Notes under the pieces: generated by a model | What the model saw: only the letters and a program-made list of their open reading frames with translations | Database searches by the model: none | What the model was told of the DNA's origin: nothing | In this document: in pieces, positions 5,964 through 62,671 of the stretch | How the letters are laid out: every line of letters begins with the position of its first letter | Position numbering within the stretch: position 1 is the stretch's first letter | Program-made: the position numbers and the translations under genes | Source of the DNA: Candidatus Omnitrophota bacterium | GTDB lineage: Bacteria; Omnitrophota; Omnitrophia; Omnitrophales; Aquincolibacteriaceae | DNA length: 64,000 bases | Direction of reading: 5' to 3' | Assembly: GCA_035368605.1 (NCBI GenBank) | Contig: DAOSLF010000003.1 | Coordinates: 64,889-128,888, forward strand

Positions 5964-6011
5964 TCATCCGCCGCGAAACTTGCCGGACGGACGCCCCCGG
6001 TTTTAAAATCA

Positions 6012-8200: not shown

Positions 8201-8276
8201 TTCTCCTGGTTAGTGATCTTCGGGGTCCGAATAAATGCTTCGAAGGGCTTGAGTCTATCAAAACGGGACCTGAATA

Positions 8277-18525: not shown

Positions 18526-18687
18526 GGGTTAAGAATCGCGTTTGTTCCAGCATCTATTTTATCGGCCCGGTTTCATTCTTGTGAACGTAGATTTTCGGAA
18601 TGAAAGTCAGACAGAGCCGTCCCGAAATAACCTCTTCTCAACCGGGGCTGATTTGTCGATAATAGGTCCCTGAAAACCGGAGGCATC

Positions 18688-19395
18688 ATGTTTCTTTTTC
18701 TGAAACTTGTTCTCGCGCACCTGATCGCGGATTTCGTCCTGCAGTTCGAGGAGCTTTACCAGCTGAAGGTCCGCCGTTTCATGGGGCACCTGCTCCATGT
18801 CCTGATTCATGCCGGCGTCACGGCTATTCTCCTTTTCCCTTATCTGAACGAGCCGGTCATCCTTCTTTTCATCGCGTTCCTGACGGGCGAGCATCTCCTG
18901 CAAGACCTGACAAAATACAGCCTGACCCAAAAATTCCCCGCGAAAAAATTCCTGTACTACATAGTCGACCAGATCAGCCACTTCGCCGTTCTTGCCCTGA
19001 TCTTCCTCGTTCCTTTCGCCAATGAAGCGAGGGCGCTGCCGGGTTCCCAGTCGCTGAACTTCCTGTATCGTTATCCGCCCATAACCGGGCTCTTTATCTT
19101 TTTCGTGTTGCTTACCTTCGCGGCCAACTACACCCTGAACTCTTTTTACGTGAGCTACGTGAAGGGCTGCCGCCCGTTCCACTGGATCACATCGCGTGAA
19201 ATGACCGTCGCGATCCTCGAGAGAACCGCGATCGCCGCGGCGGTGATCCTGGGCCGGTCCCCTTTCCTGGTCGCGCTTTCTCTCGCGGCAGGCCTGATCC
19301 GCCTTCCGTTCAAGGACCTGCGGTCCTGGAGGGATTTCCTCCTCAGCGCCGTCTACAGTCTCACACTCAGTTACGGATTCCTCGCATGCCTGTAA
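18688..19395 (+). CDS. DUF3307-family integral membrane protein
   Basis: N-terminus LKLVLAHLIADFVLQ is typical of DUF3307. The protein is polytopic. The long antisense ORF on the minus strand is judged spurious. Confidence 0.55.
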   Translation: MFLFLKLVLAHLIADFVLQFEELYQLKVRRFMGHLLHVLIHAGVTAILLFPYLNEPVILLFIAFLTGEHLLQDLTKYSLTQKFPAKKFLYYIVDQISHFAVLALIFLVPFANEARALPGSQSLNFLYRYPPITGLFIFFVLLTFAANYTLNSFYVSYVKGCRPFHWITSREMTVAILERTAIAAAVILGRSPFLVALSLAAGLIRLPFKDLRSWRDFLLSAVYSLTLSYGFLACL

Positions 19396-20758: not shown

Positions 20759-21874
20759 TTATCGGGAAAAGAACCGGGGTAAAACGAGGGTGAATTTCGT
20801 GCCGATGCCAGGCCTGCTTTCAACAGTGACCACCCCTCCGTGCATCTTGACGGTGCGGGAAACGACCATGAGGCCGAGACCGGTCCCGCGCTTCCCTTTC
20901 GTGGAGAAGAACGCCTCAAAAAGGCGCGCCCGGACCTCCTCCGGCATTCCGCACCCGTTATCCTCGACTGTGATCTCATAGGTTTCCGGGCCGGTCACGC
21001 GGGCACGGACCCTGATCCAGGCATCCGGTTTATCTTTAAAAGCCTCGAACGCGTTCTTGACAAGGTTCAGAAGCGCGCGATAAAGCGAGCGACCGTCCCC
21101 GCGGACGACCGGAAAATCCTTTTCAGCGGCACAATCAAGCTTTACGGAGAGCGCCCCCGCGCGTTCCGCGAGGTCCTCGCCCAACTCTTGTAGCAGGGCC
21201 GGGACATCCACATCTTCGGGTTCGAGCTGATAGTCTTTGCTGAGGCCGGCCACTTCCCAGATAAAACCGTCCATATCCTTCAGAGTCTTTTCGAGCTTCC
21301 CGAGGCCGGTCGCGATGAACTTCGGGTTCTTTTCATTAACGCCCATCCGGATCATTTCATCCGAAAATTTCGCGAGCTGGAGAATGTTCTTGATCTCATG
21401 GACCAGCATCGCCGTGGTCTGGCCGATCGCGGCAAGCCGTTCCATCTTGAGGTTTTCTTCGAAAAGAAGGATGTTTTTGAGCGCGCCGGAAAACTCCGAT
21501 GCCAGATTAAAACCGGTCTCCGTCTCCCGCGACGTGAACGCGGCGGCGCGCTCCAGACAGGCAAGTCCGACGGAGGCATTGCCGGCGATAAGGGGAAGGA
21601 AAAGAAGACCTTTTTCCGCGGAGGGTTTCCCGTCATCAAAAGCCGCCTGGGCAGCCCCTAGGAGAACCGCGGACGCTTCTTTGGGAGTAAAGGTCGCGCT
21701 TTCAAGCCACAGCTGTTTATCCGGGCCGGCCAGGAACAGATAGCCGCGCGAGGAAGGGACAAGCTGCAAAAGGGTCTGAAGAAAGAAATCGATCAGGATG
21801 CTTTTGTCCGTGATCGCGTCATAAATCCTGCCGATCTCGTGCGTGGCTTTGTCTGGATTACCGGAATGCGACAT
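20759..21874 (-). CDS. Sensor histidine kinase (GAF-like N-domain, HisKA, HATPase_c)
   Basis: H-box LAAIGQTTAMLVHEIKNIL and ATP-lid motifs DNGCGMPEE ... GTGLGLMVVSRTV. Confidence 0.8.
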   Translation of the reverse strand: MSHSGNPDKATHEIGRIYDAITDKSILIDFFLQTLLQLVPSSRGYLFLAGPDKQLWLESATFTPKEASAVLLGAAQAAFDDGKPSAEKGLLFLPLIAGNASVGLACLERAAAFTSRETETGFNLASEFSGALKNILLFEENLKMERLAAIGQTTAMLVHEIKNILQLAKFSDEMIRMGVNEKNPKFIATGLGKLEKTLKDMDGFIWEVAGLSKDYQLEPEDVDVPALLQELGEDLAERAGALSVKLDCAAEKDFPVVRGDGRSLYRALLNLVKNAFEAFKDKPDAWIRVRARVTGPETYEITVEDNGCGMPEEVRARLFEAFFSTKGKRGTGLGLMVVSRTVKMHGGVVTVESRPGIGTKFTLVLPRFFSR

Positions 21875-22025
21875 GGGGCGATACTAATAAAAGCTTTCGG
21901 TGTTTGCAAGCGTCTGAATGCCCGACCTCACGCGGGGACCTGGAAATCGCAAATACATTTGGTGAATGAGTCCCGGGAAACCGGTCCCGGATTTCGGGCG
22001 TCGGCAGGCAAGCATTGCACCCTGT

Positions 22026-24032
22026 ATGAAAACAGCTATAATCCCTCCCATGCGGAAGATCATCCCCTATCTCATACCCGCCCTCGTCCTCACCGGCATT
22101 CTTTTCCTCCTTTATCAGTTCCCCGACCAGATCGAGGACTTCCGCATCATGGTCTTCGACAATTATCAACGCATCCGTCCCCGCATCTACAAGGACACTC
22201 CGGTCCGCATCATCGATATCGATGATAAAAGCCTCGAAAGGTTCGGTCAGTGGCCGTGGCCGCGCACGGTACTCGCCAAACTCGTCACGCGACTCTCTAA
22301 GGCCGGCGCTCAAACGATCGCCTTCGACGTCGTGTTCGCCGAACCCGATCGCACCTCACCGAAGAACGTGATCAGATCATGGCCTGACGTACCGGCCCTG
22401 CAGGCGGTGCGGTCCCAGATCGACGTGATGCCGGACCACGACCTGCTTTTCGCGGAAGCCGCGGACAAAGCCAGGGTCGTTTTCGCTTTCGGTCTGATCG
22501 CCGCGCCCGACAGGAACATCCCGGCCGTCAAATACGGTGGTTTCCTGGAACACGGTGCTCCGGGAGATCGGACCATTGATTATATCGGCCCCGCTTACAA
22601 GGGCGCGGTCACGAATATCCCCTCTCTCGAAAAAGCGGCCAGGGGCCTCGGCGGATTCAATATCAGCTCCGATGAAAAAGGGATGATCCGTCGCGCGCCC
22701 GCTCTCTTCCGTCTGAGGGACACGATCTATCCGTCGCTGTCGCTTGAGGCCATGCGGGTTTTTCAGGAGGTGAACGTGTTCAAGGTCTCGCTCGCAGGTA
22801 CGGAAACGAACGCCTCGTTCGGCGAGAAGACCGGCATCGTCTCCGTCAAAACGGGATTTCTCGACATCCCGACCGACAAACGCGGACGGATCTGGCTCTA
22901 TGACACGGGGCACCGCCCCGAGCGGTTCATCCCGGCCTGGAAGGTCTTCTCCGACGATTTTGATGCGGCATCCATCGATGGCAAGCTGCTCTTCGTCGGG
23001 ACGAGCGCGACCGGCCTGAAGGACATCCGCCCCACCCCGCTCAACACCTTCGCGCCCGGCGTCGAGGTCCACGCCCAGATCGCGGAGCAGATGTTCACGG
23101 GCGATTACCTGCGCCGTCCCGACTGGACCGAAGGCGCGGAATTCCTTTATATCTGCGTGCTCGGAATCCTCCTGATCGCGCTTCTCCCGAGCGTCGGCGC
23201 GGTATGGTGTGCTTTCCTCGGCGCCGCGGCGATCGGCTTCGCGGTATGGTATTCCTGGAAGCTGTACGTGGACGAAAACCTTTTAATCGACCCCCTCGTC
23301 CCTTCGCTTTCGATCCTCCTGATTTACCTCGTCTCCTCGTTCCTCAGGTTCCTCAAGACAGAGACCGAGCGGGGGCAGATCCGCGGTGCGTTCGCCCGTT
23401 ATCTTTCGCCCGAGCTCGTGACGCAGCTTGCGAAAAACCCGAAACAGCTGAAGCTGGGCGGCGAAACGCGTGAAATGACCTTTCTTTTTACCGATATCCG
23501 CGGATTCACCACGCTTGCGGAAGGGCTAAACGCGCAGGAGCTTACGGTCTTCATGAACTCCTTCATGACCCCCATGACGGAGATCATCCTCAAGCACAAG
23601 GGCACGATTGACAAATACATCGGGGACTGCATCATGGCGTTCTGGAACGCACCCCTCAGCGACGCGGATCACGCGAGGAACGCCTGTCACGCGGCGCTTG
23701 AAATGCGGGAATTCCTCTCGGTATTCAATGAGAGGCGGAAAAAGGAAGCGGAGGCACAGGGCAGACCCTTCCGCGAAATCAAGATCGGGATCGGGATCAA
23801 TACGGGCCTCGCGGCGGTCGGTAATATGGGTTCGGAATACCGGTTCGACTACACGGTCCTCGGAGATGAGGTGAACCTCGCATCGCGGCTGGAAGGTCTC
23901 ACGAAACAATATGAGACGACCATCATTATCGGCCCCAACACCGCGAACCGCATACCCGAACTCAAACCTCAGGAACTCGGGACCATACAAATCCGCGGCA
24001 TGACCGTTCCCAAACAGATCTTCAGCTTATAA
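22026..24032 (+). CDS. CHASE2-sensor class III adenylate/guanylate cyclase
   Basis: N-terminal TM, periplasmic CHASE2 region (RIIDIDDKSLERFGQWPWPR), a cluster of TM helices, and the cyclase core TFLFTDIRGFTTLAE ... GDCIMAFWNAP ... IGINTGLAAVGNMGS ... YTVLGDEVNLASRLE. The start was chosen at an internal Met and is uncertain (21966 or 22050 also possible). Confidence 0.85.
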   Translation: MKTAIIPPMRKIIPYLIPALVLTGILFLLYQFPDQIEDFRIMVFDNYQRIRPRIYKDTPVRIIDIDDKSLERFGQWPWPRTVLAKLVTRLSKAGAQTIAFDVVFAEPDRTSPKNVIRSWPDVPALQAVRSQIDVMPDHDLLFAEAADKARVVFAFGLIAAPDRNIPAVKYGGFLEHGAPGDRTIDYIGPAYKGAVTNIPSLEKAARGLGGFNISSDEKGMIRRAPALFRLRDTIYPSLSLEAMRVFQEVNVFKVSLAGTETNASFGEKTGIVSVKTGFLDIPTDKRGRIWLYDTGHRPERFIPAWKVFSDDFDAASIDGKLLFVGTSATGLKDIRPTPLNTFAPGVEVHAQIAEQMFTGDYLRRPDWTEGAEFLYICVLGILLIALLPSVGAVWCAFLGAAAIGFAVWYSWKLYVDENLLIDPLVPSLSILLIYLVSSFLRFLKTETERGQIRGAFARYLSPELVTQLAKNPKQLKLGGETREMTFLFTDIRGFTTLAEGLNAQELTVFMNSFMTPMTEIILKHKGTIDKYIGDCIMAFWNAPLSDADHARNACHAALEMREFLSVFNERRKKEAEAQGRPFREIKIGIGINTGLAAVGNMGSEYRFDYTVLGDEVNLASRLEGLTKQYETTIIIGPNTANRIPELKPQELGTIQIRGMTVPKQIFSL

Positions 24033-26029: not shown

Positions 26030-26288
26030 TTTCCCCTCTCCTCAGCTTCAAAACTGAACCAACGTTGGATTAGCAAAGAAAACGGAACCCGCTTCGCGCA
26101 TAGTATAGCTGCGGGGGATTGTTTGAGATAGATGAAAATTCCGCAGGACAACGCTTCCTCTTCAAGCAACCGGAACAAGATCTGAAGAGTTCTCAATGTC
26201 AACCGTCAACGGCAACGGGAGGCTGCGGCGCTTGAGCTAATTGACGGCGCGCGGGAGACATCGGGGCGTAACCCCGATTCCGATCTCC

Positions 26289-27716
26289 CTAGAATTCCCA
26301 GCGCTTGGTGAACAGGCCTTCAATCTTGTTATTCGTGTAGGCGTAATTCGTGATGTTGGAGAGCGAGCGGTAATACTCGTAGGAAAGTGTGAACACAATA
26401 TCCTCCATCTGCCTGGGGAGGATCCTGGAGAGAAAAGCGGAAAGCGGGGTCCCAACCGTCACGCGGTAGCGGAATATCTTATCGTGACGGAAACGGCTCG
26501 CGACATCCGTTTCGGGTTCGTTATAACGGTCGAAATAAAGGTTCGCGGCATTGATCAGGAACGAACCCCGCCAGAGCGCCCACGTGTGGATCAGGTTCAT
26601 ATTGAACCGGTCGTAGCCATTGAACCCGGACTTGGCGTTCTTGTTCATATAGCCGATGCTCGGCGTGATCCGCATCGTCGCGACCGGCGCGTACGTGACA
26701 CCCCACAGGTAATCATATTCCGGGCCTTTGCGCTGCGCCCCGGTCGTGTTCTCCGAGACGCCGGAATAATTCTGGTACTCGTAACGGAAGTTCATGAAAC
26801 CGTTCAGTTTTCTCGTGAGCTGGCGATCGAACTGAAGGTTCAGCCCCAGCGTCCGGAGGTAGGTTTCGCGGGAAAGCAGGATATTGCTCGCGATAAAGGA
26901 CGGCGAAATATTAACCCACTTGGTCTTGTACCGCCCGCCGATCTCCCCCTGGTAGGTGCTGAGGTCGAGCGAATCGACCATAGTCTGTTCCTGCAGGAAA
27001 TACGTAAAAGACCCGAAAATCTCGTGGCCGGCCCGCATGCCGAGGTCGTGCGTGAAGTCCACGGTCGTAATGTTCGTGAAGTGCGTGTCGTCGCGCTTGC
27101 GGTTCGTGCCTTCGAGACCTTGTGCCACATCGTTCACGAGCTGGAACTTGGAGGAAGGCGCCGCGTTGCGGTTCGTGTCATAGCCCCAGCCCACGGTCTC
27201 CCGGAGACCGAAATGCGTCCGGCGCTTGCGGCGTTCGATACGTTTCCTGTATTCCCTGACCTGTTCCTCGATGTTCTTCGGAAGCGGCATGCCCTTCAGG
27301 GTCTCGAGCTCTTTTTGGGCCTCATTGAGGTTATCGAGACGATACAGCACGACGGCATAAAGGAGGCGGACGTCCGCGAGATTCGGATTGACGAGGAGGA
27401 TCCGCTCGAGGGTGGCGGCCGAGCCGAGGAGCTCGTTGTTGGCGATCTGTTGCTGAGCGAACCGGAAGTTCAGCGGAAGGTTATCGGGATCCTTGAGGAT
27501 ATCTTCATAGGTCACGCCGGTCCGGTATTTTTTCTCCTCTTCGAGCTTTCCGGATTTTTCAGCGACAGCGGCGGAATATTTTTCCGAACGGAGTTCCCGC
27601 TCGACAGCCTTGACCTCCTGCCCGACATCTTCGGCACGGGCCTGCGTGACGGGGAAAAGAAACGGGAGGACGGTGAAAAAAGCAATGAGGACCGGAGCGA
27701 ATCTGGAAGCGCGCAT
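26289..27716 (-). CDS. Outer-membrane beta-barrel protein with N-terminal TPR-like domain (Slam/DUF560-like architecture)
   Basis: Signal peptide VLIAFFTVLPFLFPVTQARAED, a TPR-like helical N-terminal third, then alternating amphipathic beta-strands. The protein ends in a C-terminal Phe (KRWEF), the beta-barrel signature. Confidence 0.55.
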   Translation of the reverse strand: MRASRFAPVLIAFFTVLPFLFPVTQARAEDVGQEVKAVERELRSEKYSAAVAEKSGKLEEEKKYRTGVTYEDILKDPDNLPLNFRFAQQQIANNELLGSAATLERILLVNPNLADVRLLYAVVLYRLDNLNEAQKELETLKGMPLPKNIEEQVREYRKRIERRKRRTHFGLRETVGWGYDTNRNAAPSSKFQLVNDVAQGLEGTNRKRDDTHFTNITTVDFTHDLGMRAGHEIFGSFTYFLQEQTMVDSLDLSTYQGEIGGRYKTKWVNISPSFIASNILLSRETYLRTLGLNLQFDRQLTRKLNGFMNFRYEYQNYSGVSENTTGAQRKGPEYDYLWGVTYAPVATMRITPSIGYMNKNAKSGFNGYDRFNMNLIHTWALWRGSFLINAANLYFDRYNEPETDVASRFRHDKIFRYRVTVGTPLSAFLSRILPRQMEDIVFTLSYEYYRSLSNITNYAYTNNKIEGLFTKRWEF

Positions 27717-27871
27717 GAGAGCCCTTTCTTTAACGGGTTCGGATTTGTGACAGTGTACTATAGGAACACCCTAAAAATCAAAAAGAGATTACCGCTTCCT
27801 TTTTTAGCGTCCGCTATCCGGAAAACCGCTCCAAATAACGGCTTTGTCGCTTTTGAAATCAAGATATACTA

Positions 27872-29827
27872 GTGCCCATGGAATTCCAGCTTGATCCTTT
27901 CCAGCAGCAAGCCGTTGAGTGGATTGAAAAAGACCACTCTCTCCTCATTTCGGCCCCGACCGGTTCCGGCAAGACCCTCATCGCGGAAAAGGCCGTCGAA
28001 AAGGCCTTCGCTCAGGGGAAGGGCGTTATCTACACGGCCCCGATCAAAGCCCTGAGTAATCAGAAGTTCCGCGATTTCCAGCAGAGGTTCGGCGCGGCCA
28101 ATGTCGGCATCCTGACCGGCGACGTCGCGATCAACGCGGGCGCCCGGCTGCTCATCATGACGACCGAGATTTACCGGAACTCCCTTTTCGAGAACAGTGA
28201 GCGCATCCGGAGTACGGGTTGGGTCATTTTCGACGAGGTCCATTACCTGGATGACCACGAGCGCGGGACGGTCTGGGAGGAGGCCCTTCTTTTCACGCCG
28301 CCTGAGATCAGGATTCTCGCGCTCAGCGCGACTATTCCGAACGTGCGGGAACTTGCATCGTGGATGCAGATCGTGCATGACCGGCCGGTTGCGGTGATCG
28401 AAGAAACAAAACGGCCGGTTCCGCTCCATTTCTTCTACCAATGCCAGGGGCATTTCTTCACGAACCTGAAATCGCTGCGCAAGGACGGCTACTATTCCCG
28501 CGATAACTGGGAACTTTCCGTGCGTGAGCGGCGGCGCGGGTTCAAACAAATGCGCGCGAAACCGAACCGCCTGAGTGAACTGCTCGATCACCTGATCCGC
28601 GAGGACCGCCTCCCCGCTATTTATTTTGCCTTCAGCCGGAAACGCACGGTCTACCTCGCCTGGGAGATCGCGCACTACGACCTGCTGAACAAGGCCGAGC
28701 GCGCGAAAGTCACGGAACTCTTCGACGAACTCTGCAAAAAATACGACCTCGCGGAAGAACGCTCCGCGCAGGACATGAAACCCCTGATCGAACACGGCAT
28801 CGCCTACCACCACGCGGGCATGCTTCCAACGCTCAAGGAAGTGGTCGAACGCCTTTTCACGAGCCGCCTGATCAAGCTGATCTTCACAACCGAAACCTTC
28901 GCGCTCGGAATCAATATGCCGGCGCGAACGGTCATCTTCGACGAACTTGAAAAATTCTACGGGACGGGCTTCAAGGCCCTCACGACCCGCGATTTCTACC
29001 AGATGGCGGGTCGCGCGGGGCGACGGGGCATGGACGCGAAAGGGTTCGTCTATTGCCGCATCCTGCCGCATGACATCCCCTTCCCGCAGGTCGAGCGCAT
29101 CATTTTCGGCCATCCCGAACCCGTCCGCAGCCAGTTCAACGCCGCTTACGCGACCGTTCTCAACCTCTACCGTGATTTCGGGGAGGATCTCCTTGATGTT
29201 TATCCGAGGTCCTTCCATTATTTCCAGTCCTCGCGGCGAATGCGCGATGACGGTTTCGACCTGATCCGCAGCAAGCTGAATCTGTTAAAAGAGCTGGGAT
29301 ACATCCGCGACGGGAAACTTTCGGAAAAGGGGGAATTCGCGTCCTCAATTTTCGGCTATGAACTGTTGCTCACGGAAATGTACCAGGACAAGGTCTTCGA
29401 GAGCTTCGACGAGGCGCGGCTCAACGTATTCCTCGCGGGCCTCGTGTTTGAGCCCCGTAAAGGGCTTGATGAGCCGCCCAGGCTTTCGCATCAAAACGAA
29501 CAACTGCTCAAGGTCACCCAGCAGTACCACCGGAACATCCACAAAAAGGAGCGGGCCCACCGGATCCGCCCTTACACGAAGCCGCCGCATTTCCATCTCG
29601 CGAAGGCGATCGAGGCGTGGACACGGGGGGAAGCGTTCGACAAGGTCATGCGGGACACTTCGGAGGATGAAGGAACGCTGGTCCGTTATTTCCGGATGGT
29701 GACCCAGCTCCTGCGCGAGATCGAGCACGCGCCTCACGCCCCGGAGGCACTCCGTCAGATGGCATTGAGGGCGCGCGGGACGATCGATCGCGACGTCGTC
29801 GACGCAGAAAAACAGCTCCGGGCCTAA
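27872..29827 (+). CDS. Ski2-like superfamily-2 DEAD/DEAH-box helicase
   Basis: Walker A APTGSGKT, DEVH box (VIFDEVHYL), SAT motif (LSATIPN), and motif VI QMAGRAGRRG. Confidence 0.8.
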   Translation: MPMEFQLDPFQQQAVEWIEKDHSLLISAPTGSGKTLIAEKAVEKAFAQGKGVIYTAPIKALSNQKFRDFQQRFGAANVGILTGDVAINAGARLLIMTTEIYRNSLFENSERIRSTGWVIFDEVHYLDDHERGTVWEEALLFTPPEIRILALSATIPNVRELASWMQIVHDRPVAVIEETKRPVPLHFFYQCQGHFFTNLKSLRKDGYYSRDNWELSVRERRRGFKQMRAKPNRLSELLDHLIREDRLPAIYFAFSRKRTVYLAWEIAHYDLLNKAERAKVTELFDELCKKYDLAEERSAQDMKPLIEHGIAYHHAGMLPTLKEVVERLFTSRLIKLIFTTETFALGINMPARTVIFDELEKFYGTGFKALTTRDFYQMAGRAGRRGMDAKGFVYCRILPHDIPFPQVERIIFGHPEPVRSQFNAAYATVLNLYRDFGEDLLDVYPRSFHYFQSSRRMRDDGFDLIRSKLNLLKELGYIRDGKLSEKGEFASSIFGYELLLTEMYQDKVFESFDEARLNVFLAGLVFEPRKGLDEPPRLSHQNEQLLKVTQQYHRNIHKKERAHRIRPYTKPPHFHLAKAIEAWTRGEAFDKVMRDTSEDEGTLVRYFRMVTQLLREIEHAPHAPEALRQMALRARGTIDRDVVDAEKQLRA

Positions 29828-38315: not shown

Positions 38316-38936
38316 TCAGAAACGGACCTTCAGTTTCCGGAGTGCTTTTTTGAGGCGGTCGGGACCGCGAAAGCGGATAGCGTGCATCCCGGCCTTACGC
38401 GCCCCGGCAACGAAACTTTTCATATCGTCGATAAAGACGGTCTCTTCGGGCCTGAGACCGATCTTCTTCAGGACACGCCGGTAAATCTTGAGGTCGGGCT
38501 TGCGGGCCCCCACCTCATGGGACGGGAACATCCGACAAAAATGCCTCAGGATCCGGAATTCTTTCTTGATGTGCGTGAAATGAAGCGCGTTCGTGTTCGA
38601 GATGAGATAAAGCGGATAATGCTTCCCGATCCTCGCGAGCAATTTGTCCATGCCGGGGTTTTCCCAGAAGATGTCATTCCAGTAACGTTTGAAGGTCATG
38701 AACGGGACCGGCTTTTTAAAGACCCGGCAGGCCTCCCGGTAGAATTCCCGGGTCGAGATCTCCCCCCGCGTGTAGGCCTGTTCGAATCTGGAAAGAAAAA
38801 AGTGCGCCCAGATCCGCGCCTGGGAGATGCCGCCCGCCTCGGAGAAGCGACGTGCGGCTTTTTTAACGTCATAATTCACGAGGACGTTGCCAAGATCGAA
38901 GATCACAGCCTTGATTTCAGGGGGTTTCTTTTTCAT
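38316..38936 (-). CDS. HAD-family hydrolase
   Basis: Motif I AVIFDLGNVLV, a conserved S/T in ISNTN, and motif IV VFIDDMKSFV. The start is the internal Met MKKKPPEIK. Confidence 0.7.
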   Translation of the reverse strand: MKKKPPEIKAVIFDLGNVLVNYDVKKAARRFSEAGGISQARIWAHFFLSRFEQAYTRGEISTREFYREACRVFKKPVPFMTFKRYWNDIFWENPGMDKLLARIGKHYPLYLISNTNALHFTHIKKEFRILRHFCRMFPSHEVGARKPDLKIYRRVLKKIGLRPEETVFIDDMKSFVAGARKAGMHAIRFRGPDRLKKALRKLKVRF

Positions 38937-38989
38937 GGGCAAAGGATTGTAACATCGCAAGCCACCCGCCACAAGACACACGACTCGGT

Positions 38990-39351
38990 TTTATACGGGA
39001 GCGTATCCCGCCACGGCAGTCCGCAAATACTCGCGATACTTGTCCATTCATCGGTTGCCCTCTGTGCAGTTGCTTGTTTTTCGAAAACACAATCCACCAG
39101 ATTTCCCGGGATAATCTTTTTTTCTTACCCTTTATCCCTTCACTAGTTACAGCTTTTTATCAGCACTAAGCACTAAAGAACAACTATCTTTTTTAAAAAC
39201 TATAAAATGATTAAAAAAATAATAATAAATAAATCTATGCTATGTCTTGCTTCTTTTTGCGTGTTGCATTTAATCCAGAAACAAATTACAATTATAGCAG
39301 GGTCGACATGAACTAATAGCGTCTTGGCGGAAGGAGCGAGGAGAAAAACAA
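38990..39351 (+). promoter_or_regulatory. Very AT-rich (~25-30 % GC) leader upstream of the pseudopilin operon; probable promoter region and left boundary of the island
   Basis: Runs such as aaaaactataaaatgattaaaaaaataataataaataaatct, in a genome that is otherwise >60 % GC. I did not recognise a sigma-54 or other specific consensus. Confidence 0.3.
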
Positions 39352-39771
39352 ATGGGACCTCTTCCTGACAAACGTGGTTTTCGAGGGTTCACGCTCATCG
39401 AGGTAATGGTTGCCTTGTTCGTGACCACAATTGCCATTGCGGGATATGTCGGATCTAACATTGCGACCCAACGACAGGCCGCAGAGTTACATGAGCGAAC
39501 CATCGCAGTACAAGAGGCTCAGCGTGTCATTGAACAAATGCGTGATAAAGCCAGAACAAACAATTTTCCCGGAGATGTCGTGGCCGCCTTCCCTGATGGC
39601 GGAACCGTTGCCGGAATGAATGCCCTGCCCGATGAACGGGTTCAGGTCGATTATGTAAATCCGGCGGCTACTCCTCTGGATACCACTGTCACCGTGACAT
39701 GGCAATCCTACACCTCCCGCCGGCAAACGGCGGCCCTGAGGGCTTATATTGCAAAGAGGAAAACGCCATGA
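39352..39771 (+). CDS. Type IV pilin-like minor pseudopilin (prepilin-type N-terminal cleavage/methylation domain)
   Basis: Leader MGPLPDKRGFRG followed by FTLIEVMVALFV: G-1, F+1, E+5 and a hydrophobic helix. 139 aa. Confidence 0.75.
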   Translation: MGPLPDKRGFRGFTLIEVMVALFVTTIAIAGYVGSNIATQRQAAELHERTIAVQEAQRVIEQMRDKARTNNFPGDVVAAFPDGGTVAGMNALPDERVQVDYVNPAATPLDTTVTVTWQSYTSRRQTAALRAYIAKRKTP

Positions 39772-40316
39772 GAAAACTCACATCACAAAAAGGATTTAAT
39801 CTCATGGAAGCGATGCTCGCCGTGGCGCTGTCCAGCATTGTGGTTTTCGGAGTCTTTTTGCTTTTTCGGGTCGGCAGCGAACAATCTCAAATAAACCAGT
39901 CCCTCATGGATCTCAAAGACTCCTCTCGCGAAGCCATTTATAAAATGGTCCAGGAGATTCGCCAATCTGCTCCCGGTCACGTGATCATTGAAGCCAACGG
40001 TCAGTCAATCCGTTTTAAAATTCCTCATCCGGATCACTTGACAGGTCCTGGTTTTGACGTCGACTGGGATTCCGCACACACCATCACCTACGCTCTCGGC
40101 GGGGCTAACTCCCGGCAAATCATACGAACCGATACCACAACCGGGATGACCTCCATCATCGCCAACGATATCACGGCTCTGCGGTTCTCTGAAAATTCCT
40201 CGCCGTCCAGGATTGTGACGATAACTTTAAATGCCCAGAAAACGCCACCCGGCGGGCGAGCGGTTCCATCCACTCCCCTGCAAATAACGGCTCAAGCGGA
40301 TGTGAGAAACCCATGA
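39768..40316 (+). CDS. Type IV pilin-like minor pseudopilin (GspJ/PilW-like size)
   Basis: Leader MRKLTSQKG followed by FNLMEAMLAVALSSIVVFGV (E+5). Its start codon overlaps the previous stop (ATGA). Confidence 0.75.
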   Translation: MRKLTSQKGFNLMEAMLAVALSSIVVFGVFLLFRVGSEQSQINQSLMDLKDSSREAIYKMVQEIRQSAPGHVIIEANGQSIRFKIPHPDHLTGPGFDVDWDSAHTITYALGGANSRQIIRTDTTTGMTSIIANDITALRFSENSSPSRIVTITLNAQKTPPGGRAVPSTPLQITAQADVRNP

Positions 40317-41521
40317 AAACTCATCCTTTCTCCCAAATCGGAAATCAGAGGGGGTTCGTATTGACTGTGGTTTATCTTATCCTCGCGCTCGTAGCCGTTT
40401 TTTCGGTCGCTTATTTCTCCCGCTGCGTTGCATTTGTCCAGGCTAATGAGCGCAATATTCACAAAACCGTGGCATTTAACATGGCTGAATCGGGCATTGA
40501 TTGGGCCATCAGCCAGTTAGCATCAAACACCGAATACACCGGAACCTCCGCCTACGTCCCCCTGGACACCGATTACATGAGGGGCGGATTCACGGTCTCG
40601 GTCATCACGGATGACTCCGATCCCAAAATCCGGATTATCCGGGCAAGCGGATTCGCCCCTTCCAATGACCCTACCCAGCGAGGGTATCAAACATCAAGTC
40701 TTCTTGCTTACGTTCAATCCGGATCCAGTAGCGCTTTTCGCGCCGGAATTTTCGCGACAGATTCCATTCAAATGTCGGGAAACGCCCAAACGGACTCTTA
40801 CGACTCTCGGAACGGGGCTTATGGTGGAAGCAATGTCGCCTATAACGGTGGCATTGAGACCAATACAACGGGCCCCCAGGAAGTCACGCTAAGTGGAAAC
40901 GTCATGATCCAGGGGGGCATCACCGTCGGCCCGACAGAATCGCCCTCTTCGGTGGTATCAGTACGCGGCAATGCCATGATTACGGGAAGTATTTTATCCA
41001 ATTCGGCTCCCGTCACCTTCTCTGATGCCGTGGCTCCGGTCAGCGCGAGCGGCGAGCTCAAAATCAGCGGAAACACAACGTACTATCTCATGCCCGGAAC
41101 CTATCACTTTACGTCCATGAGTATAACGGGAAACGCCAAACTTGTTCCGACCGGCCCCGTGTCCATTTATGTCGATGGAACTATCAAGATAGCGGGAAAC
41201 GGTATCGCAACTGCCGACAACCGTCCACCCAACCTTCTCCTGTATGCGACCGGCAACTCAAGCGTAAGTTTTTCCGGAAACGCGTCTTTCTACGGAGCTA
41301 TCTACGCGCCGAACTCGACCGTCTCCGTATCCGGGAACGGCAGATGCTATGGGGCCATTATTGCCAAAGATTATAAAAATACGGGAAATGGCCAGATCCA
41401 TTTTGACGAAGCGTTGAAAGAAATCCAGGGCGGCAGCTCCGGCGGAATAACCATCCTGGCCTGGCAAGAACAAAACACCCTGCTGTGGGGAACGGGAACA
41501 GCGGCAGATACGGAAACCTGA
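40313..41521 (+). CDS. PilX/GspK-like tip pseudopilin lacking Glu+5, with periodic SGN-repeat (predicted beta-helix) domain
   Basis: N-terminus QRGFVLTVVYLILALVAVFS has a prepilin-like hydrophobic helix with no E+5, as in GspK/PilX. An (S/T/A/R)GN motif recurs every ~20-25 aa (SGNAQ, SGNVM, RGNAM, SGNTT, TGNAK, AGNGI, SGNAS, SGNGR, TGNGQ). The start is ATGA-coupled to the upstream gene. Confidence 0.6.
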   Translation: MKTHPFSQIGNQRGFVLTVVYLILALVAVFSVAYFSRCVAFVQANERNIHKTVAFNMAESGIDWAISQLASNTEYTGTSAYVPLDTDYMRGGFTVSVITDDSDPKIRIIRASGFAPSNDPTQRGYQTSSLLAYVQSGSSSAFRAGIFATDSIQMSGNAQTDSYDSRNGAYGGSNVAYNGGIETNTTGPQEVTLSGNVMIQGGITVGPTESPSSVVSVRGNAMITGSILSNSAPVTFSDAVAPVSASGELKISGNTTYYLMPGTYHFTSMSITGNAKLVPTGPVSIYVDGTIKIAGNGIATADNRPPNLLLYATGNSSVSFSGNASFYGAIYAPNSTVSVSGNGRCYGAIIAKDYKNTGNGQIHFDEALKEIQGGSSGGITILAWQEQNTLLWGTGTAADTET

Positions 41522-42081
41522 CGGAACTTGGCGAAGGATGTTTAGAACGCAGGGGTTGAAAATCTTTATCCTCCAAACCCCGAACCCGCTCCCCGTCGCG
41601 TCTCTTCCCTCGCGCACAATTCCGGAATCTGCAAAACCCCCGGTATTGAAGGTAAGCCACGCCCAAATATTTCTTTTGGGTTGAGTTATCCTTGACAAGC
41701 TCCGCTGGTGAAGTCGTGCGTTCTTGTATACCCATCTCCCCCCCCCGCAACCTTTTCCATCGGGATGGAAGGGTCCCCCTTGTGATCACGGCAGACCTCA
41801 CTTCGGGAACAATCCCGGGAACGACCGTCATATCCGTCCGAAAGGGCCGAGGCCGGCTCCCGGACGCGCGCCAGATTCTTGCGGGGGCTTTTTGATCACG
41901 GACAATCTCATGACGGACTGGTGTTTCTCCCCTCTTGAAGTTATACTGGCGCGAGTTCATCCCGATTTCGACAAGGGAATCGTCCGGCGGCCAAAAACGT
42001 TTTTCTTTATTTCAAAACCCGCACGATCAAGATCCAATAATCGCGCGAACCGCGCCCAACGAAAGGCATTGTCCCGAATCC

Positions 42082-43272
42082 ATGAAAACTCTTAAAGGCA
42101 ACGCGATCATCGCCCAATCCGGCGGCTGCACGGCCGTCATCAACCAGAGCCTGGCCGGAGCGGCCATGGCGGCCCGCGCGTCAAAAACGATCACCGGCGT
42201 CTGGGGGGCCCGTAACGGGGTTGAGGGGATTCTGAAAGATTCCCTGATCGATCTTTCCGCGCAGCCGGCTGTCCTTCTCCGGAAGATCGCAGAGACGCCT
42301 TCGGCGGCGCTCGGGTCCTCCCGTCATAAATTGAAGCCCGGCGACGACAAAAAGATCCTCGCGAACCTGAAACGGCGGAACATCCGTTATCTGTTCCTGA
42401 TTGGCGGCAATGACACTGCGAACACGAGTCTCCGGATCGCCAGGACCGCGCGTGAGAACCGCTATGAACTTCGCGTGATCCATATCCCCAAAACGATCGA
42501 CAACGACCTGATGGAGACCGACCATTGCCCCGGCTACGGCTCGGTCGCGCGGTTCGCGGCGATCACCACGCAGGAAGCCGCCCTCGACACGCGGGCCATG
42601 AAGAACGTGGACCCGATCAAGATCATTGAGCTCATGGGACGCAACTCGGGCTGGATCGTCGCCGCGGCCGCGCTCCTGAAACGTTCCGCCGCCGATGCCC
42701 CGCACATCCTGCTCATCCCGGAAATCCCGCTCGACGAGACCGCCCTGATCAAGCGCACGGAGGCCGTCATGCAATCGGTCGGTTACTGTATCATTGTCAT
42801 TTCGGAGACGATCCGCGATCACGGCGGAAACCGGATCGGGCAGAAAACAGAAGGCGTAACATCGGACCCGTTCGGCCACAAATACGTGGAAGGGACCGCG
42901 GCGCGGCTTGCCTCGATCCTTGAAAAGAACCTCGGCGTGCGCGCGCGCTTCGACAAACCGGGCACGATCCAGCGCATGTCCATGCCCTATATTTCGACGG
43001 TTGACCAGAAAGAAGCCTGTCAGGCGGGAGCTCGGGCGGTCGCGTGGGCTCTGAAAGGGATGTCAGAGGTCATGGTGGGGTTCGCGCGGAAATCCGGGAA
43101 ACGCTACGCGATCGAATACCGGCCGGTGCCGCTCGGAAGAATCCCGAACAACGAACGCTACCTCCCCGCGGAGTTTTTCGACGCGAAACACTCCATGATC
43201 ACACCGGCCTTTGCCGAGTACGCGCTTCCGCTTCTCGGTCCCGGTCTTCCGGAGTTCCCGGTATTCAAATAA
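42082..43272 (+). CDS. pfk: 6-phosphofructokinase (GGNDT motif; possibly PPi-dependent type)
   Basis: QSGGCTAVINQSL ... LFLIGGNDTANTS ... IHIPKTIDNDL ... LMGRNSGW. The start was chosen at the internal Met MKTLKG. Confidence 0.85.
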   Translation: MKTLKGNAIIAQSGGCTAVINQSLAGAAMAARASKTITGVWGARNGVEGILKDSLIDLSAQPAVLLRKIAETPSAALGSSRHKLKPGDDKKILANLKRRNIRYLFLIGGNDTANTSLRIARTARENRYELRVIHIPKTIDNDLMETDHCPGYGSVARFAAITTQEAALDTRAMKNVDPIKIIELMGRNSGWIVAAAALLKRSAADAPHILLIPEIPLDETALIKRTEAVMQSVGYCIIVISETIRDHGGNRIGQKTEGVTSDPFGHKYVEGTAARLASILEKNLGVRARFDKPGTIQRMSMPYISTVDQKEACQAGARAVAWALKGMSEVMVGFARKSGKRYAIEYRPVPLGRIPNNERYLPAEFFDAKHSMITPAFAEYALPLLGPGLPEFPVFK

Positions 43273-48015: not shown

Positions 48016-49782
48016 TTATTCCCTTCCGATCTCCAGCTCAACACAGGTGCGATTGCGTCCTTCCGTCTTGGCCCGATAAAGCGCTTCATCGGCCCTGTGC
48101 ACCATCATGTCAGGCACCGTCTCTCCCGGCCGGAGGGTTGCGACGCCCAGGCTGATCGTCAGAGGGATGACCTTATCCTCGTGAATAAAAACTTCCTGCT
48201 CGACCCGTTTCCTCAGTTTCTCTCCAAAACCAAACGCGGTTTCGACAAGCGTGCATCCCCGGAGCATGATGATGAACTCTTCCCCGCCGTAACGTCCGAC
48301 GACGTATTTCCCTTTTTTCTTTTTCTCTTCGGGAAAAATCTCCTGCATGATCTGGGCCAGTTTTTTGAGCACCGCATCTCCCGCCAGGTGGCCATGAGTA
48401 TCATTGATGGTCTTGAAGCGGTCAAGGTCCAAAAGGATGATGGAGAGCGCGGTCTGTTTCTTGCAGGCTTCGACAACGGCGCTGTTAAGAAGCACGCGGA
48501 AATGGCGGATCACATAAAGTCCGGTCAGGCCATCGCGGGTGGCAAGCGCGAAGAGCCGCTCCTGTTCGCGACGTCCGACCGTCATCGAGAAAATAGACGA
48601 AAAAACAAAAAGCGAGAAGATCAAAAGAAGGGGGTTCAGGACGAAAACCCACATCCCCCGGCTGACGAACATCGCGAAGGCCGTCGCAACCCACACACCC
48701 CCCCACGCAAGCCCCGCCACGAACGAAATGATCTGCCGGAAGAAAATAAAGGTCGCCGACGCAAAAAGTCCGACCATCAGAAGGCAAAGAAGGTTCGCGC
48801 GGCGGGAGGCGGGATAAACAAACTGCTTCGTCAGGATGCTGTTCATGAGATTCGTCTGAACACCCACAGCCGGATAGGTCTCCTCCAGCGGATTGGCTTT
48901 GATATCCGTCAGACCAACCGCGGTGAGACCCACAATGCAGATCTTTCCTTTGACATCCTGGGGGGTAATGGCGGATTTCCCGCCCTGTTTCAGGACGCTG
49001 TAACTTTTGACCAGATCCACAAAAGAGATATGGCGAAAGGTGTCCTTCCATTTTCCGGCCCAGTTGATCACGATCTTCCCCTCTCCATCGGTCCGGAATG
49101 GCAACTTCCCCTCGGGGAGCGGCTGGCCCAGGTAATCATAGGCCACCCTCAACGCGAGATACGGATGTTCCTCCCCGCCGTAATCGAGATAAGGGATAAC
49201 GCGCCGCAGCGCGCCGTCCGGGTCCGGGAAAATATTGACATGCCCAGTCCCTTTCGCGAACTTCTCAAATTCCGGGAGGGAATGGATCCACACTCTTTCA
49301 TTGCCGAGCGGCTCAAGCATATTCGGCAGGTAGATGTTGTCAGATTCCTTCAAGGCCTCCAGAAGCGATTCATCGTCGAACGTGGTGCTCGGTTCGCTGA
49401 AGATCACGTCAAAGACGATCGCCTTTGCGCCCCACTCCTTGAGGATGCGGATCAGGGCGGCATGGTTGTGCCGGGCCCAGGGCCACCGGCCGATCACGCG
49501 AAGGCTGTCCTCGGCCATGTCGATATGCACGATCGCGGGATGCTGATAGATCGGAGGTCTTTGGCGGAAGAAAAAATCCAAGAACACGTACTCGAACCGG
49601 TTCATGAGAGGCGACGACATGAGCATCGTATGAACGCCGATGATCAAAAGACAAAACAGGAAATGGACTGCGTGAAGCCGGAAAGCGGTGCTGAAATAGA
49701 AACTGATCTCCCGCTGCTTTCTCCGAAAAAAGCTTCCCGGATGCTGCACAAGCCCCGAGGGCGGATTTTTCATTGTACCCAT
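48016..49782 (-). CDS. CHASE2-sensor diguanylate cyclase (GGDEF)
   Basis: N-terminal TM, CHASE2 region (IVHIDMAEDSLRVIGRWPWAR), a cluster of TM helices, and the GGDEF core RDGLTGLYVIRHF ... LDLDRFKTINDTHGH ... RYGGEEFIIML. Confidence 0.85.
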   Translation of the reverse strand: MGTMKNPPSGLVQHPGSFFRRKQREISFYFSTAFRLHAVHFLFCLLIIGVHTMLMSSPLMNRFEYVFLDFFFRQRPPIYQHPAIVHIDMAEDSLRVIGRWPWARHNHAALIRILKEWGAKAIVFDVIFSEPSTTFDDESLLEALKESDNIYLPNMLEPLGNERVWIHSLPEFEKFAKGTGHVNIFPDPDGALRRVIPYLDYGGEEHPYLALRVAYDYLGQPLPEGKLPFRTDGEGKIVINWAGKWKDTFRHISFVDLVKSYSVLKQGGKSAITPQDVKGKICIVGLTAVGLTDIKANPLEETYPAVGVQTNLMNSILTKQFVYPASRRANLLCLLMVGLFASATFIFFRQIISFVAGLAWGGVWVATAFAMFVSRGMWVFVLNPLLLIFSLFVFSSIFSMTVGRREQERLFALATRDGLTGLYVIRHFRVLLNSAVVEACKKQTALSIILLDLDRFKTINDTHGHLAGDAVLKKLAQIMQEIFPEEKKKKGKYVVGRYGGEEFIIMLRGCTLVETAFGFGEKLRKRVEQEVFIHEDKVIPLTISLGVATLRPGETVPDMMVHRADEALYRAKTEGRNRTCVELEIGRE

Positions 49783-62302: not shown

Positions 62303-62364
62303 GCGGCGGAGACCGCCTGATAATATTTCTTGACTGGAATATTCCATAAATGGTATGTTCCGGC

Positions 62365-62667: not shown

Positions 62668-62671
62668 TGTC

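Follow-up and report, generated by a model that had tools for sequence, protein, structure and literature searches.

A horizontally acquired, putative tip-complex operon of a type IV filament in an Omnitrophota genome

Between the genes for a HAD-family hydrolase and a phosphofructokinase, a 64-kb stretch of an Omnitrophota genome (the window) contains a GC-poor island, which raises the questions of what this island encodes and how it came to be there. The original prediction placed three consecutive plus-strand genes in the interval, and the corresponding ORFs were indeed found at 39352-41521, with stop and start codons overlapping as ATGA exactly at 39768-39771 and 40313-40316, as had been claimed. 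The genes and their neighbors are as follows.

38316..38936, minus strand: HAD-family hydrolase gene, host-type left flank (Pfam Hydrolase/HAD_2)
39352..39771, plus strand: P1, predicted minor pilin gene, 139 aa
39768..40316, plus strand: P2, putative minor pilin gene, 182 aa, start overlapping the P1 stop (ATGA)
40313..41521, plus strand: P3, predicted tip pilin gene, 402 aa, start overlapping the P2 stop (ATGA)
42082..43272, plus strand: PPi-dependent phosphofructokinase gene (pfk), host-type right flank (NF010675 423.9 bits, PF00365)

The true start of pfk is likely the ATG at 42082 and not the TTG at 41935, because orthologue alignments begin at ~42090. The prepilin motifs GFTLIEVMVALFV and GFNLMEAMLAVAL are both present as predicted, as is GFVLTVVYLILALVA, which has no Glu at +5. 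A six-frame scan of the whole window revealed only two G-F-x-x-x-E prepilin leaders, those of P1 and P2. Base composition had been part of the earlier description, and the proposed GC dip is real (52.5% for the three genes together vs. 57.0% for the window, which falls in the lowest 3% of equal-sized windows), but the figures attached to it had been too extreme: the P1, P2, and P3 genes have 53.3, 51.0, and 52.7% GC rather than 48-50%, the flanks measure 53-62% (HAD 54.4%, pfk 59.8%) rather than all exceeding 60%, and the intergenic leader (370-415 bp) is at 38-40% overall rather than 25-30%, with only its core as low as 23% over 150 bp and 16% over 50 bp. Nowhere in the window is GC lower than in this leader, although other AT-rich intergenic stretches are found near 700, 14600, and 59000. 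At four-fold sites the dip is clearer than in total GC, with 0.50-0.71 for the cassette vs. 0.72-0.89 for neighboring housekeeping genes. The island is atypical by both GC and GC4, but low GC was rejected as sufficient proof of foreignness, as a similar offset exists in the probable donor clade described below (four-fold GC of 0.52-0.60 for the cassette vs. 0.66-0.71 for housekeeping genes). Composition alone is weak evidence because the cassette of that clade is also GC-poorer at synonymous sites.

The HMM search that had been suggested as a check placed P1 above the N_methyl cutoff (PF07963, 32.1 bits, cutoff 21.2) and above that of TIGR02532 (25.5 bits, cutoff 16.3). Both profiles mark class III signal peptides, in which a short basic leader, Gly-1, Phe+1, and Glu+5 are joined to ~20 hydrophobic helical residues. 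Sub-threshold matches of P1 included PilV (31.3 bits, cutoff 52.2), GspI (25.3, cutoff 44.35), XpsI (28.9, cutoff 150, spanning residues 11-122), and also ComGE, while G12, F13, and E17 are invariant across 8 homologues. P1 is predicted to be a prepilin-type minor pilin of the GspI/PilV-like subtype, as suggested by its size, Glu5, gene order, and weak similarity. P2 alone falls below the cutoff for PF07963 and TIGR02532 (14.5 and 14.0 bits), yet its homologues P0125 and P0127 pass PF07963, and no member of its family departs from G9, F10, and E14. P2 has a weak match to PRK10557 (E 8.8e-7, 28.4 bits vs. a cutoff of 120) and none to the GspJ HMM. Its AF2 model (pLDDT 83, from only 8 sequences) has a helix of 54 residues at the N terminus and then a beta domain of 8 strands. 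Because a Foldseek search of this model against the PDB returned nothing significant (best E 0.03, unrelated proteins), the J/W subtype is assigned from size and gene order, and P2 is putatively a GspJ/PilW-like prepilin-type minor pilin. Profile searches of the PDB with P1 and P2 found similarity to pilins limited to the N-terminal helix. The pilin fold itself was recovered, in which a long N-terminal alpha-helix (~53 residues) lies against an antiparallel beta-sheet. All cassette scores against the equivalog HMMs for GspI, GspJ, GspK, and PilV were far below cutoff, and a Verru_Chthon cassette (TIGR02599) was rejected on an insignificant E of 0.018.

P3 matches DUF7305 (PF23981) with 80.6 bits vs. 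a gathering threshold of 27 and pAdhesive_15 (PF20597) with 34.8 vs. 23.8, and PF23981 is carried by 120/120 of the P3 homologues among the matches listed. In the P3 family alignment of 102 members, G-1 is present in 95 and position +5 is T, V, A, S, L, I, M, or F, never E. Together with the P1 matches to N_methyl and TIGR02532 and the invariant G, F, and E5 of the P2 family, this bears out the earlier proposal of a minor-pilin/tip module. PilX_N (PF14341) has no match on P3 and occurs in only a few distant homologues, and T2SS_GspK (NF037980) reaches 24.5 bits vs. a cutoff of 130, over residues 12-74 only. The pilin domain of the P3 model superposes on GspK, its closest solved pilin-domain match, and P3 has both a GspK-like pilin topology and the last place in the I-J-K gene order. 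Inserted in the pilin fold before the last beta-strand is a triangular beta-solenoid of the ice-binding-protein type (~220 residues). The best whole-chain structural match to P3 is ComZ, at 12% identity, and a profile of the 102 sequences run with hmmsearch against all PDB sequences returned nothing below E 0.1 and did not find ComZ. From its model, P3 would be a Glu5-less tip pilin of the ComZ/PilX type, which combines a GspK-like pilin module with a DUF7305/ice-binding-like beta-helix head, the likeness being one of fold only. A search for literature on DUF7305 found none, and the domain gains its first functional reading here, i.e., in Omnitrophota, as the head domain of a Glu5-less tip pilin.

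Nine Omnitrophota genomes share the order IspH-dCMP deaminase-Fdx-M48-HAD, then a membrane-protein and an epimerase gene, then PFK-Era-DUF748-AKR-Trx, all without the cassette, and the HAD protein of the window is 74-89% identical to its orthologue upstream of pfk in the 9 relatives. The segment 39026-41796 stands in place of their membrane-protein and epimerase genes, and the proposed synteny comparison identifies the cassette as an insertion. Its borders and scars, mapped against a host-type relative (L025) and a cassette-bearing genome (L007, GCA_040767405.1), are as follows.

38998..39026: left junction of the transferred segment, L007 homology starting at 39026 (blastn) or possibly at ~39001 by eye
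41454..41500, plus strand: probable recombination joint marking loss of a fourth gene, matching the 3' ends of gene 3 and gene 4 in L007
41599..41796, minus strand: pseudogene fragment of the donor's neighboring 112-aa gene, covering residues 46-112 and disrupted by a stop and a frameshift
41775..41980, minus strand: remnant (5' part) of the host epimerase-like gene, with an internal deletion and a stop, right junction at ~41796

On the left, host-type nucleotide homology to L025 ends at 38955, and a 14-nt imperfect direct repeat (12/14) is present at both borders, its left copy CACGGCAGTCCGCA lying at 39012-39025. At the joint within P3, the L007 gene 3 match runs to 9935 and the gene 4 match starts at 11187, the AWQEKNTLLWGTGT motif is encoded there by both DUF7305 paralogues (genes 3 and 4), and the P3 tail GTGTAADTET resembles the tail of gene 4. 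The fourth gene, a second DUF7305 paralogue, was probably lost by recombination between the conserved 3' ends of the two paralogues. From here to the right border (window 41454-41796 vs. L007 11187-11533) nucleotide identity is 79%, and tblastn with the L007 112-aa protein matches the pseudogene fragment at E 3e-22 and 59% identity across an internal stop. The epimerase remnant is recognized by the epimerase-like proteins of L025 and L029 (tblastn, residues 2-45 and ~122-172, E 1e-5 to 3e-7) and is 75% identical to L025 7864-7981 in nucleotides. At the right crossover, ATCACGGC is common to the donor-type (L007) and host-type (L025) sequences, an 8-9 nt microhomology. No integrase, transposase, or tRNA was found at the island borders, and with only an imperfect repeat and microhomology there, illegitimate recombination is a better fit than the action of a dedicated element. 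A contig assembled or binned from two organisms has to be considered, given that the window was assembled from a metagenome and that L009, a related lower-GC organism with a similar cassette, was recovered from a different JGI metagenome whose accession number is close by. The chance of such a chimera is close to nil and we reject it: the sequence recurs at 99.7-100% identity in five additional assemblies, made from different samples with different pipelines (JGI, NCBI MAG, ENA), with the left junction spanned by four of the five and the right junction by L005 plus the source contig L001. Moreover, the cassette is merely 86-92% identical in nucleotides to L007/L010 and hence is not DNA of those organisms, and the host-gene remnant abuts the donor-gene fragment as in real recombination.

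The divergence of the cassette was compared with that of its genome. Four-fold-site identity of the cassette is 74-79% to L007 and 65-68% to CAYULU, whereas housekeeping genes of the window genome and CAYULU are only 34-49% identical at such sites, near saturation, a genome-pair comparison which assumes that L010 and L029 are correctly binned in one MAG. In the control pairs L007-L010 and L007-L012, cassette and flanks diverge in step, as in vertical inheritance. Cassette dN/dS is 0.13-0.18 (P1 0.13-0.17). The family is essentially confined to Omnitrophota and occupies at least four genomic contexts, and at a fixed site P3 identity is 48% while neighboring housekeeping proteins keep ~77-86%. 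In the donor clade, a PTP phosphatase/AsmA pair lies on one side of the cassette, and a small gene and then a TrpB-like PALP gene lie on the other. A cassette inherited vertically and relocated in the same genome, leaving the PTP-AsmA/PALP site for the HAD/pfk site, with its lower GC and its similarity to L007/L010 due to codon usage or constraint, would fit the narrow distribution and the multiple contexts, which make relocation common, and the fact that the CAYULU cassette is likewise GC4-poorer than housekeeping genes. A metagenome scan with the PALP protein for the window organism's own PTP-AsmA/PALP site also gave no contig from the window's sample; so conserved a protein drew hits mainly from unrelated phyla. 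We nevertheless consider relocation without transfer very unlikely, since housekeeping genes of the same genome pair reach only 34-49% four-fold identity where the cassette has 65-79%, the control pairs are concordant, and the leader, trailer, and dead donor-gene fragment are 78-80% identical to L007, which constraint cannot explain. Horizontal acquisition, as originally proposed, is strongly supported by the other genes in this slot of 9 relatives, the mapped junctions, the scars, and the low synonymous divergence. The donor was probably another Omnitrophota lineage, from the lower-GC L007/L010 clade, and not a distant source. The original prediction had mentioned neither the DUF7305 beta-helix of P3 nor the lost fourth gene or the gene remnants downstream of the cassette.

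The transferred segment also includes the AT-rich leader, which suggests the following elements.

39026..39351, plus strand: AT-rich leader of the transferred segment (putative promoter region plus 5' UTR), with 78% identity to its L007 counterpart
39247..39274, plus strand: candidate sigma-70-type promoter (TTGCTT, 16 nt spacer, TTTAAT), a conserved block in the leader alignment

The 78% identity of the leader equals the neutral divergence at four-fold sites. Its core at 39190-39300 is conserved even vs. L012, where coding four-fold sites are saturated, and has 16-23% GC at every locus having this cassette type. We infer that 39247..39274 acts as a sigma-70 promoter. A consensus sigma-70 scan of the leader reported one weak site only, on the minus strand, and missed this candidate because position 2 of its -10 hexamer is T in the window, TTTAAT being weaker than the TATAAT of L007, L010, and L012. 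Rfam searches of the whole window (gathering thresholds) and of 38850-42150 (E<=5) found nothing relevant in the leader or the 560-bp trailer, which led us to reject a riboswitch or known RNA in either. A sigma-54 promoter was likewise rejected, with no correctly spaced GG-N10-GC seen by eye in the leader.

In agreement with the original prediction, the annotated ORFs of the 64-kb window include no domains of pilus or secretion machinery (major pilin, prepilin peptidase, ATPase, platform, or secretin). The cassette has no GspH/FimU-type adapter gene. Among its other contexts it is never inside a pilus locus, the nearest approach being a T2SSE-type ATPase found in L175 alone, at a distance of 4.6 kb. 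The partner machine, a T4aP or T2SS, would be encoded elsewhere in the genome. We consider it likely that the island at ~39026-41796 is a transferred, promoter-bearing operon for the priming/tip complex of a type IV filament with P3 as its beta-helix cap. The filament would most likely be the type IVa pilus, encoded by nearly all Omnitrophota. P1 (GspI/PilV-like) and P2 (GspJ/PilW-like), which keep Glu5, would dock beneath P3, whereas P3 has no Glu5 and therefore the tip would be its only possible place. Its beta-helix would extend in line with the filament axis and act as cap, plug, or adhesin, a role also proposed for Thermus ComZ and cyanobacterial PilX, and the ATGA overlaps would couple translation of P1, P2, and P3 at near-stoichiometric levels. 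On arrival, the cassette would have replaced the membrane-protein gene and most of the epimerase-like gene, probably by microhomology-mediated illegitimate recombination. The second DUF7305 paralogue would have been lost, and purifying selection would have acted on the cassette since its arrival.

P1-P2-P3 could instead be the GspI/J/K pseudopilin tip of a T2SS, its beta-helix acting atop the piston-like pseudopilus, for example in substrate or secretin contact. T2SS families are indeed among the best sequence matches, XpsI and GspI for P1 and T2SS_GspK at the N terminus of P3, and GspK is the closest solved pilin-domain match. The sequence matches are far below family cutoffs, however, and T4P minor pilins proper also most resemble T2SS pseudopilins (PMC6561018). 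The cassette is also like gspIJK in having no PilY1-like gene. We judge a T2SS tip unlikely, as the only solved or characterized proteins joining a pilin to an ice-binding-type solenoid (ComZ and cyanobacterial PilX) are T4aP components, a survey of Omnitrophota reports T4aP and Tad with type II secretion mentioned 0 times, and a bulky axial solenoid of ~220 residues suits an exposed pilus tip over a periplasmic pseudopilus. The best whole-chain structural match raises another alternative, in which the module is the tip of a competence (DNA-uptake) pilus and P3 is not an adhesin but a DNA receptor like ComZ, which binds DNA (PMC6561018). One cyanobacterial PilX/PilV subfamily is also competence-specific (bioRxiv 10.64898/2026.02.12.705559). 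This role for P3 is doubtful given a fold-level likeness at 12% identity and a solenoid of ~220 residues vs. ~380 with extra loops in ComZ. The same fold also serves in adhesins (tapirins, ice-binding adhesins, PilX-EPS), and comEA, comEC, and dprA were not seen beside any cassette examined.

A pilus tip with an exposed beta-helix is of interest for the biology of the phylum. Omnitrophota are uncultured, ultra-small (nanobacteria), and probably host-dependent, they are suspected of predatory or parasitic lifestyles, and type IV pili have been proposed as their attachment device. The tip complex is the part of the pilus most likely to touch a partner cell. It is possible, and offered tentatively, that the tip cassette is an exchangeable host- or prey-recognition module, whose DUF7305 beta-helix sets which cell or surface is grabbed and which habitat-sharing lineages swap, promoter included, like phage tail-fiber genes. 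If true, this would explain why the cassette occurs in so many contexts, why its paralogues stand in tandem, and why P3 diverges so fast, as well as the present transfer, and if tip cassettes are routinely exchanged, it would bear on the evolution of host range in Omnitrophota. The locus is an unusually clean cassette transfer between divergent uncultured lineages, in which junctions, donor and host scars, and the synonymous-site clock agree. As an event, such a transfer is well documented yet of an ordinary kind.

Thermus and cyanobacteria already provide examples of minor-pilin tip complexes whose cap bears a solenoid; in Omnitrophota, the DUF7305 tip-pilin module is conserved, self-contained, and made up of three or four genes. 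ComZ is the competence-pilus tip pilin of Thermus thermophilus HB27 (PDB 6QVI; PMC6561018). It has no detectable sequence homology to P3 (12% identity in the structural alignment), and its solenoid of ~380 residues has long loops that are missing from the ~220-residue solenoid of P3, which, unlike ComZ, is encoded in a compact operon of three genes, far from any pilus locus. Cyanobacterial PilX (PilX-Com/PilX-EPS) is, like P3, a Glu5-less terminal minor pilin with a bulky ice-binding-like beta-solenoid on its pilin fold; it has a dedicated PilV partner, is proposed to substitute for PilY1 as tip plug and adhesin, and occurs in multiple alternative sets per genome (bioRxiv 10.64898/2026.02.12.705559). 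It is from another phylum and was likened to P3 by description, whereas in Omnitrophota P1, P2, and P3 form a fixed triad, to which a second DUF7305 paralogue is often added in tandem. The GspI-GspJ-GspK tip complex of T2SS (PDB 3CI0, 5VTM) is the equivalent of PilV-PilW-PilX in T4aP, but the domain inserted in GspK is alpha-helical and at another position, while the P3 insert is a beta-helix. The cassette further differs from GspI-GspJ-GspK in HMM scores far below cutoffs and includes neither a GspH/FimU adapter nor PilY1. As for exchange, Giltner et al. reportedly treated the minor-pilin operons of Pseudomonas aeruginosa as an exchangeable island in 2011. Divergent alleles of this operon (fimU-pilVWXY1E; PAO1-type vs. 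PA14-type) are spread across strains independent of core-genome relatedness (PMC4628258). In P. aeruginosa, alleles replace one another at a fixed locus inside a single species, whereas the Omnitrophota cassette entered a new locus, between much more divergent genomes, with the loss of two resident genes.

Three + strand genes with ATGA stop/start overlaps had been described between a HAD hydrolase gene and pfk. All three ORFs (P1, P2, and P3) were found, with the overlaps at precisely the positions originally given:

38316-38936, - strand: HAD hydrolase gene, left flank
39352-39771, + strand: P1, 139-aa ORF
39768-40316, + strand: P2, 182-aa ORF
40313-41521, + strand: P3, 402-aa ORF
right flank of the cassette: pfk, PPi-type phosphofructokinase gene

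P3 is 100% identical to NCBI proteins named Candidatus Omnitrophota and is also present on JGI contig Ga0116243_10000152 (158 kb). The low GC content originally described for this segment was correct in direction, but the figures were exaggerated. With a window mean of 57.0% and flanks of 53-62%, P1, P2, and P3 have 53.3, 51.0, and 52.7% GC (the lowest 3% of equal-sized windows), while the leader upstream of P1 averages 38-40% and drops in its core to 23% over 150 bp and to 16% over 50 bp. The contrast is larger at four-fold degenerate sites, where GC (GC4) is 0.50-0.71 in the cassette vs. 0.72-0.89 in the adjoining housekeeping genes, although the cassette of CAYULU, a relative, is also GC4-poorer than its own housekeeping genes. 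The annotated N-terminus of pfk is probably wrong, since the called start codon of the gene is a TTG at 41935 (445 aa), while orthologue alignments begin at ~42090 and an ATG is present at 42082; the 49 extra codons overlap an epimerase remnant.

The triad recurs in other Omnitrophota with near-constant lengths (136-145, 169-183, and 365-419 aa), often with a second paralogue of the DUF7305 (PF23981) gene in tandem. Its neighborhoods are of at least four kinds:

PTP phosphatase-AsmA, cassette, 112-aa gene-PALP: loci L007, L010, L012, and L096
IspH-Grx-MFS, cassette, adh_short-PTPS-AddB: loci L175 and L177
giant ORF, cassette, citrate synthase: locus L176
HAD, cassette, pfk: the window

At L176 (positions 1-8909; Ga0209515_10000063), the cassette lies directly downstream of the giant ORF (>7375 aa, faint TPR/HEAT matches); giant genes of Omnitrophota have been tied to predation in published work. 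Between L007 and L012, which share a fixed site, the cassette proteins are 47-65% identical vs. 77-86% for the adjoining PALP, FolD, and GGDEF proteins; the tip proteins evolve much faster there than their neighbors.

Synteny shows that the cassette is an insertion between HAD and pfk. Among 19 Omnitrophota loci retrieved by searching for pfk orthologues, nine include HAD as well as pfk, and each of these has the order IspH-dCMP deaminase-hyp-Fdx-M48-HAD ... PFK-Era-DUF748-AKR-Trx. In these relatives, a membrane-protein gene (~383 aa) and a gene for an epimerase-like protein (~360 aa) fill the HAD-pfk gap, joined in some by two extra genes; in none of the nine does the gap hold a homologue of P1-P3. 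CAYULU and JAKJDL, two of the nine, do carry the cassette, at the PTP-AsmA/PALP site of a different contig. Host-type sequence in the window stops at 38955, and homology to L007 (genome GCA_040767405.1), a locus of the donor-type clade, spans 39026-41500 at 88% nucleotide identity and resumes across 41454-41796 at 79%, where it matches DNA downstream of the fourth gene of L007. The overlap at 41454-41500 corresponds to a conserved 3' end (AWQEKNTLLWGTGT) common to genes 3 and 4, which indicates that the fourth gene was lost by recombination between paralogues; the last residues of P3 are of the gene-4 type. The island borders contain the following features:

39012-39025 and 41787-41800: imperfect 14-nt direct repeat (12/14), CACGGCAGTCCGCA / CACGGCAGACCTCA, at both borders
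41599-41796, - strand: dead fragment of the donor's neighboring 112-aa gene (residues 46-112; disrupted by a stop and a frameshift)
41775-41980: broken host epimerase remnant adjoining the donor-gene fragment

ATCACGGC is common to donor-type and host-type sequences at the crossover. The border repeat (CACGGCAG...) was equalled in 5 of 2000 local shuffles in a post hoc test, and could reflect either integration microhomology or chance. No integrase, transposase, or tRNA was found at the island, and the segment most likely entered by illegitimate recombination assisted by microhomology. A 200-aa ORF at 41358-41960 (- strand) is a mosaic across the remnants of the donor 112-aa gene and the host epimerase and overlaps the 3' end of P3; that it represents a genuine gene is very improbable. 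At L020 (CAISGE010000015.1), two tandem major-pilin-like genes (2921-3451 and 3847-4362; 176 and 171 aa; leader MKKGFTLVE...) adjoin the HAD orthologue. This pair occupies the same slot, so pilin-type genes may have landed there repeatedly.

The decisive test of horizontal acquisition was neutral divergence, in which four-fold sites of the cassette and of housekeeping genes were compared within the same genome pair. Between the window and CAYULU (contigs of L010 and the host-type locus L029 taken as one MAG), four-fold identity is 65-68% for the cassette (334 sites) vs. 34-49%, near saturation, for HAD, PFK, Era, and DUF748 (371 sites). Between the window and L007, it is 74-79% for the cassette, and the non-coding leader and trailer are 78% and 79-80% identical, which fits a single segment of one age. 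The controls behave as vertical inheritance predicts: L007-L010 flanks (76-77%) and cassettes (57-73%) are similar at four-fold sites, and for L007-L012 both are saturated. From this discordance and the concordant controls, we can conclude that the window cassette nests inside the L007/L010 clade, from which the window genome is as distant as JAKJDL; this bears out the proposed horizontal acquisition. The window lineage is the recipient, because the context of L007, L010, L012, and L096 is older and the window holds a piece of that context's neighboring gene. In the donor clade, GC is 48-50% locally around the cassette and 47-55% within it, so the 52.5% of the island is near the donor value. 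The same sequence occurs in five further assemblies at ≥99.7% identity, with the left junction spanned four times and the right junction twice (counting the source contig); such independent assemblies spanning both junctions exclude an assembly chimera. The dN/dS of the cassette since the split is 0.13-0.18, indicating that its genes are still under purifying selection.

The AT-rich core upstream of P1 accompanies cassettes of the PTP-AsmA/PALP type and is alignable with that of L012 despite saturation at the coding four-fold sites of these cassettes. Candidate regulatory elements are as follows:

L007, L010, and L012: candidate promoter hexamers TTGCTT, 16 nt, TATAAT
39269-39274: candidate -10 hexamer of the window, TTTAAT
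39286-39298: ATTACAATTATAG box just downstream of the candidate -10, conserved in L007, L010, and L012

The ATTACAATTATAG box, kept across cassettes with saturated synonymous sites, may serve as an operator or as a start-site element. A search of the leader against Rfam detected no known RNA, and we infer a predicted promoter with an A+T-rich upstream element and a 5' UTR of ~70 nt, with a putative transcription start near 39281.

Both P1 and P2 are prepilin-like, as originally proposed. P1 exceeds the curated thresholds of the N-terminal prepilin methylation domain, its residues G12, F13, and E17 are invariant among eight homologues, and it has sub-threshold similarity to PilV, GspI, ComGE, and XpsI (the last over almost its full length). 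The P2 score is under the N_methyl cutoff, but G9, F10, and E14 are invariant in its family and two homologues exceed the cutoff. Apart from those of P1 and P2, the window contains no G-F-x-x-x-E leader. The AlphaFold model of P2 (pLDDT 83) has an N-terminal helix of 54 residues followed by an eight-stranded beta domain for which Foldseek returned no significant match in the PDB; the GspJ/PilW label thus derives from its size, its place between P1 and P3, and a weak PRK10557 match.

No ATPase, platform, secretin, peptidase, or major pilin is present among the remaining annotated ORFs of the window, which encode housekeeping functions (AddAB, IspH, GcpE, ThiC, and others) and an abundance of signaling proteins. 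The latter (EAL, GAF-SpoIIE phosphatase, histidine kinase, CHASE2-adenylate/guanylate cyclase, and CHASE2-GGDEF) are encoded at 15553-16308 (-), 19386-20708 (+), 20759-21874 (-), 21966-24032 (+), and ~48016-49782 (-). At E≤1e-4, Pfam gave no match for the sizeable ORFs 26241-27872, 27869-29218, 18607-19461, 62293-62793, and 63156-63689. Type IVa pilus genes occur in most genomes of every Omnitrophota class (PMC10066038), which makes a partner machine elsewhere in the genome plausible. At other loci, the L175 cassette has an MshEN+T2SSE ATPase gene (L175:1850-3277) 4.6 kb upstream, and a Response_reg-GGDEF-MshEN gene lies ~6 kb from the cassettes of L007 (17317-18774) and L012 (17139-18614); these MshEN genes are possibly a sign that c-di-GMP regulates the filament system.

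P3 is a pilin combined with a DUF7305 beta-helix, the solenoid covering residues ~140-370. Its reported lack of E+5 holds across the family, as the +5 residue is never Glu in 102 members, while Gly-1 is kept in 95 of them; this is the hallmark of a terminal subunit. By analogy with what is established for these pilin families, P3 would, after prepilin peptidase cleavage, nucleate assembly at the inner-membrane platform, and P1 and P2 would bind below it, using N-terminal helices and salt bridges of Glu5 in the manner of GspI-J-K and PilV-W-X. The major pilin would then polymerize underneath, pushing the solenoid of P3 outward to the far end of the fiber; there the solenoid could act as a cap and bind a ligand (cell surface, polysaccharide, or DNA). 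The ATGA overlaps would favor equimolar synthesis of all three proteins.

The cassette reveals no new mechanism. Its transfer history is unusually well resolved, and the cassette points to pilus tips being exchangeable in a phylum whose members are suspected of depending on hosts. We found no mention of DUF7305 in the literature searched, and the reading of P3 gives this domain a plausible role. A profile search with 102 homologues found no sequence-level link between P3 and ComZ or any solved protein. The reference structures that the authors of ComZ give for its two domains, GspK and FfIBP (PMC6561018), are the same two as for the domains of P3. The same architecture is described for cyanobacterial PilX in a 2026 preprint, in which the solenoid is proposed to substitute for PilY1 as tip plug and adhesin (bioRxiv 10.64898/2026.02.12.705559). 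The original reading of a minor-pilin tip module is supported and sharpened to one with a ComZ/PilX-type solenoid cap, a known kind of system.
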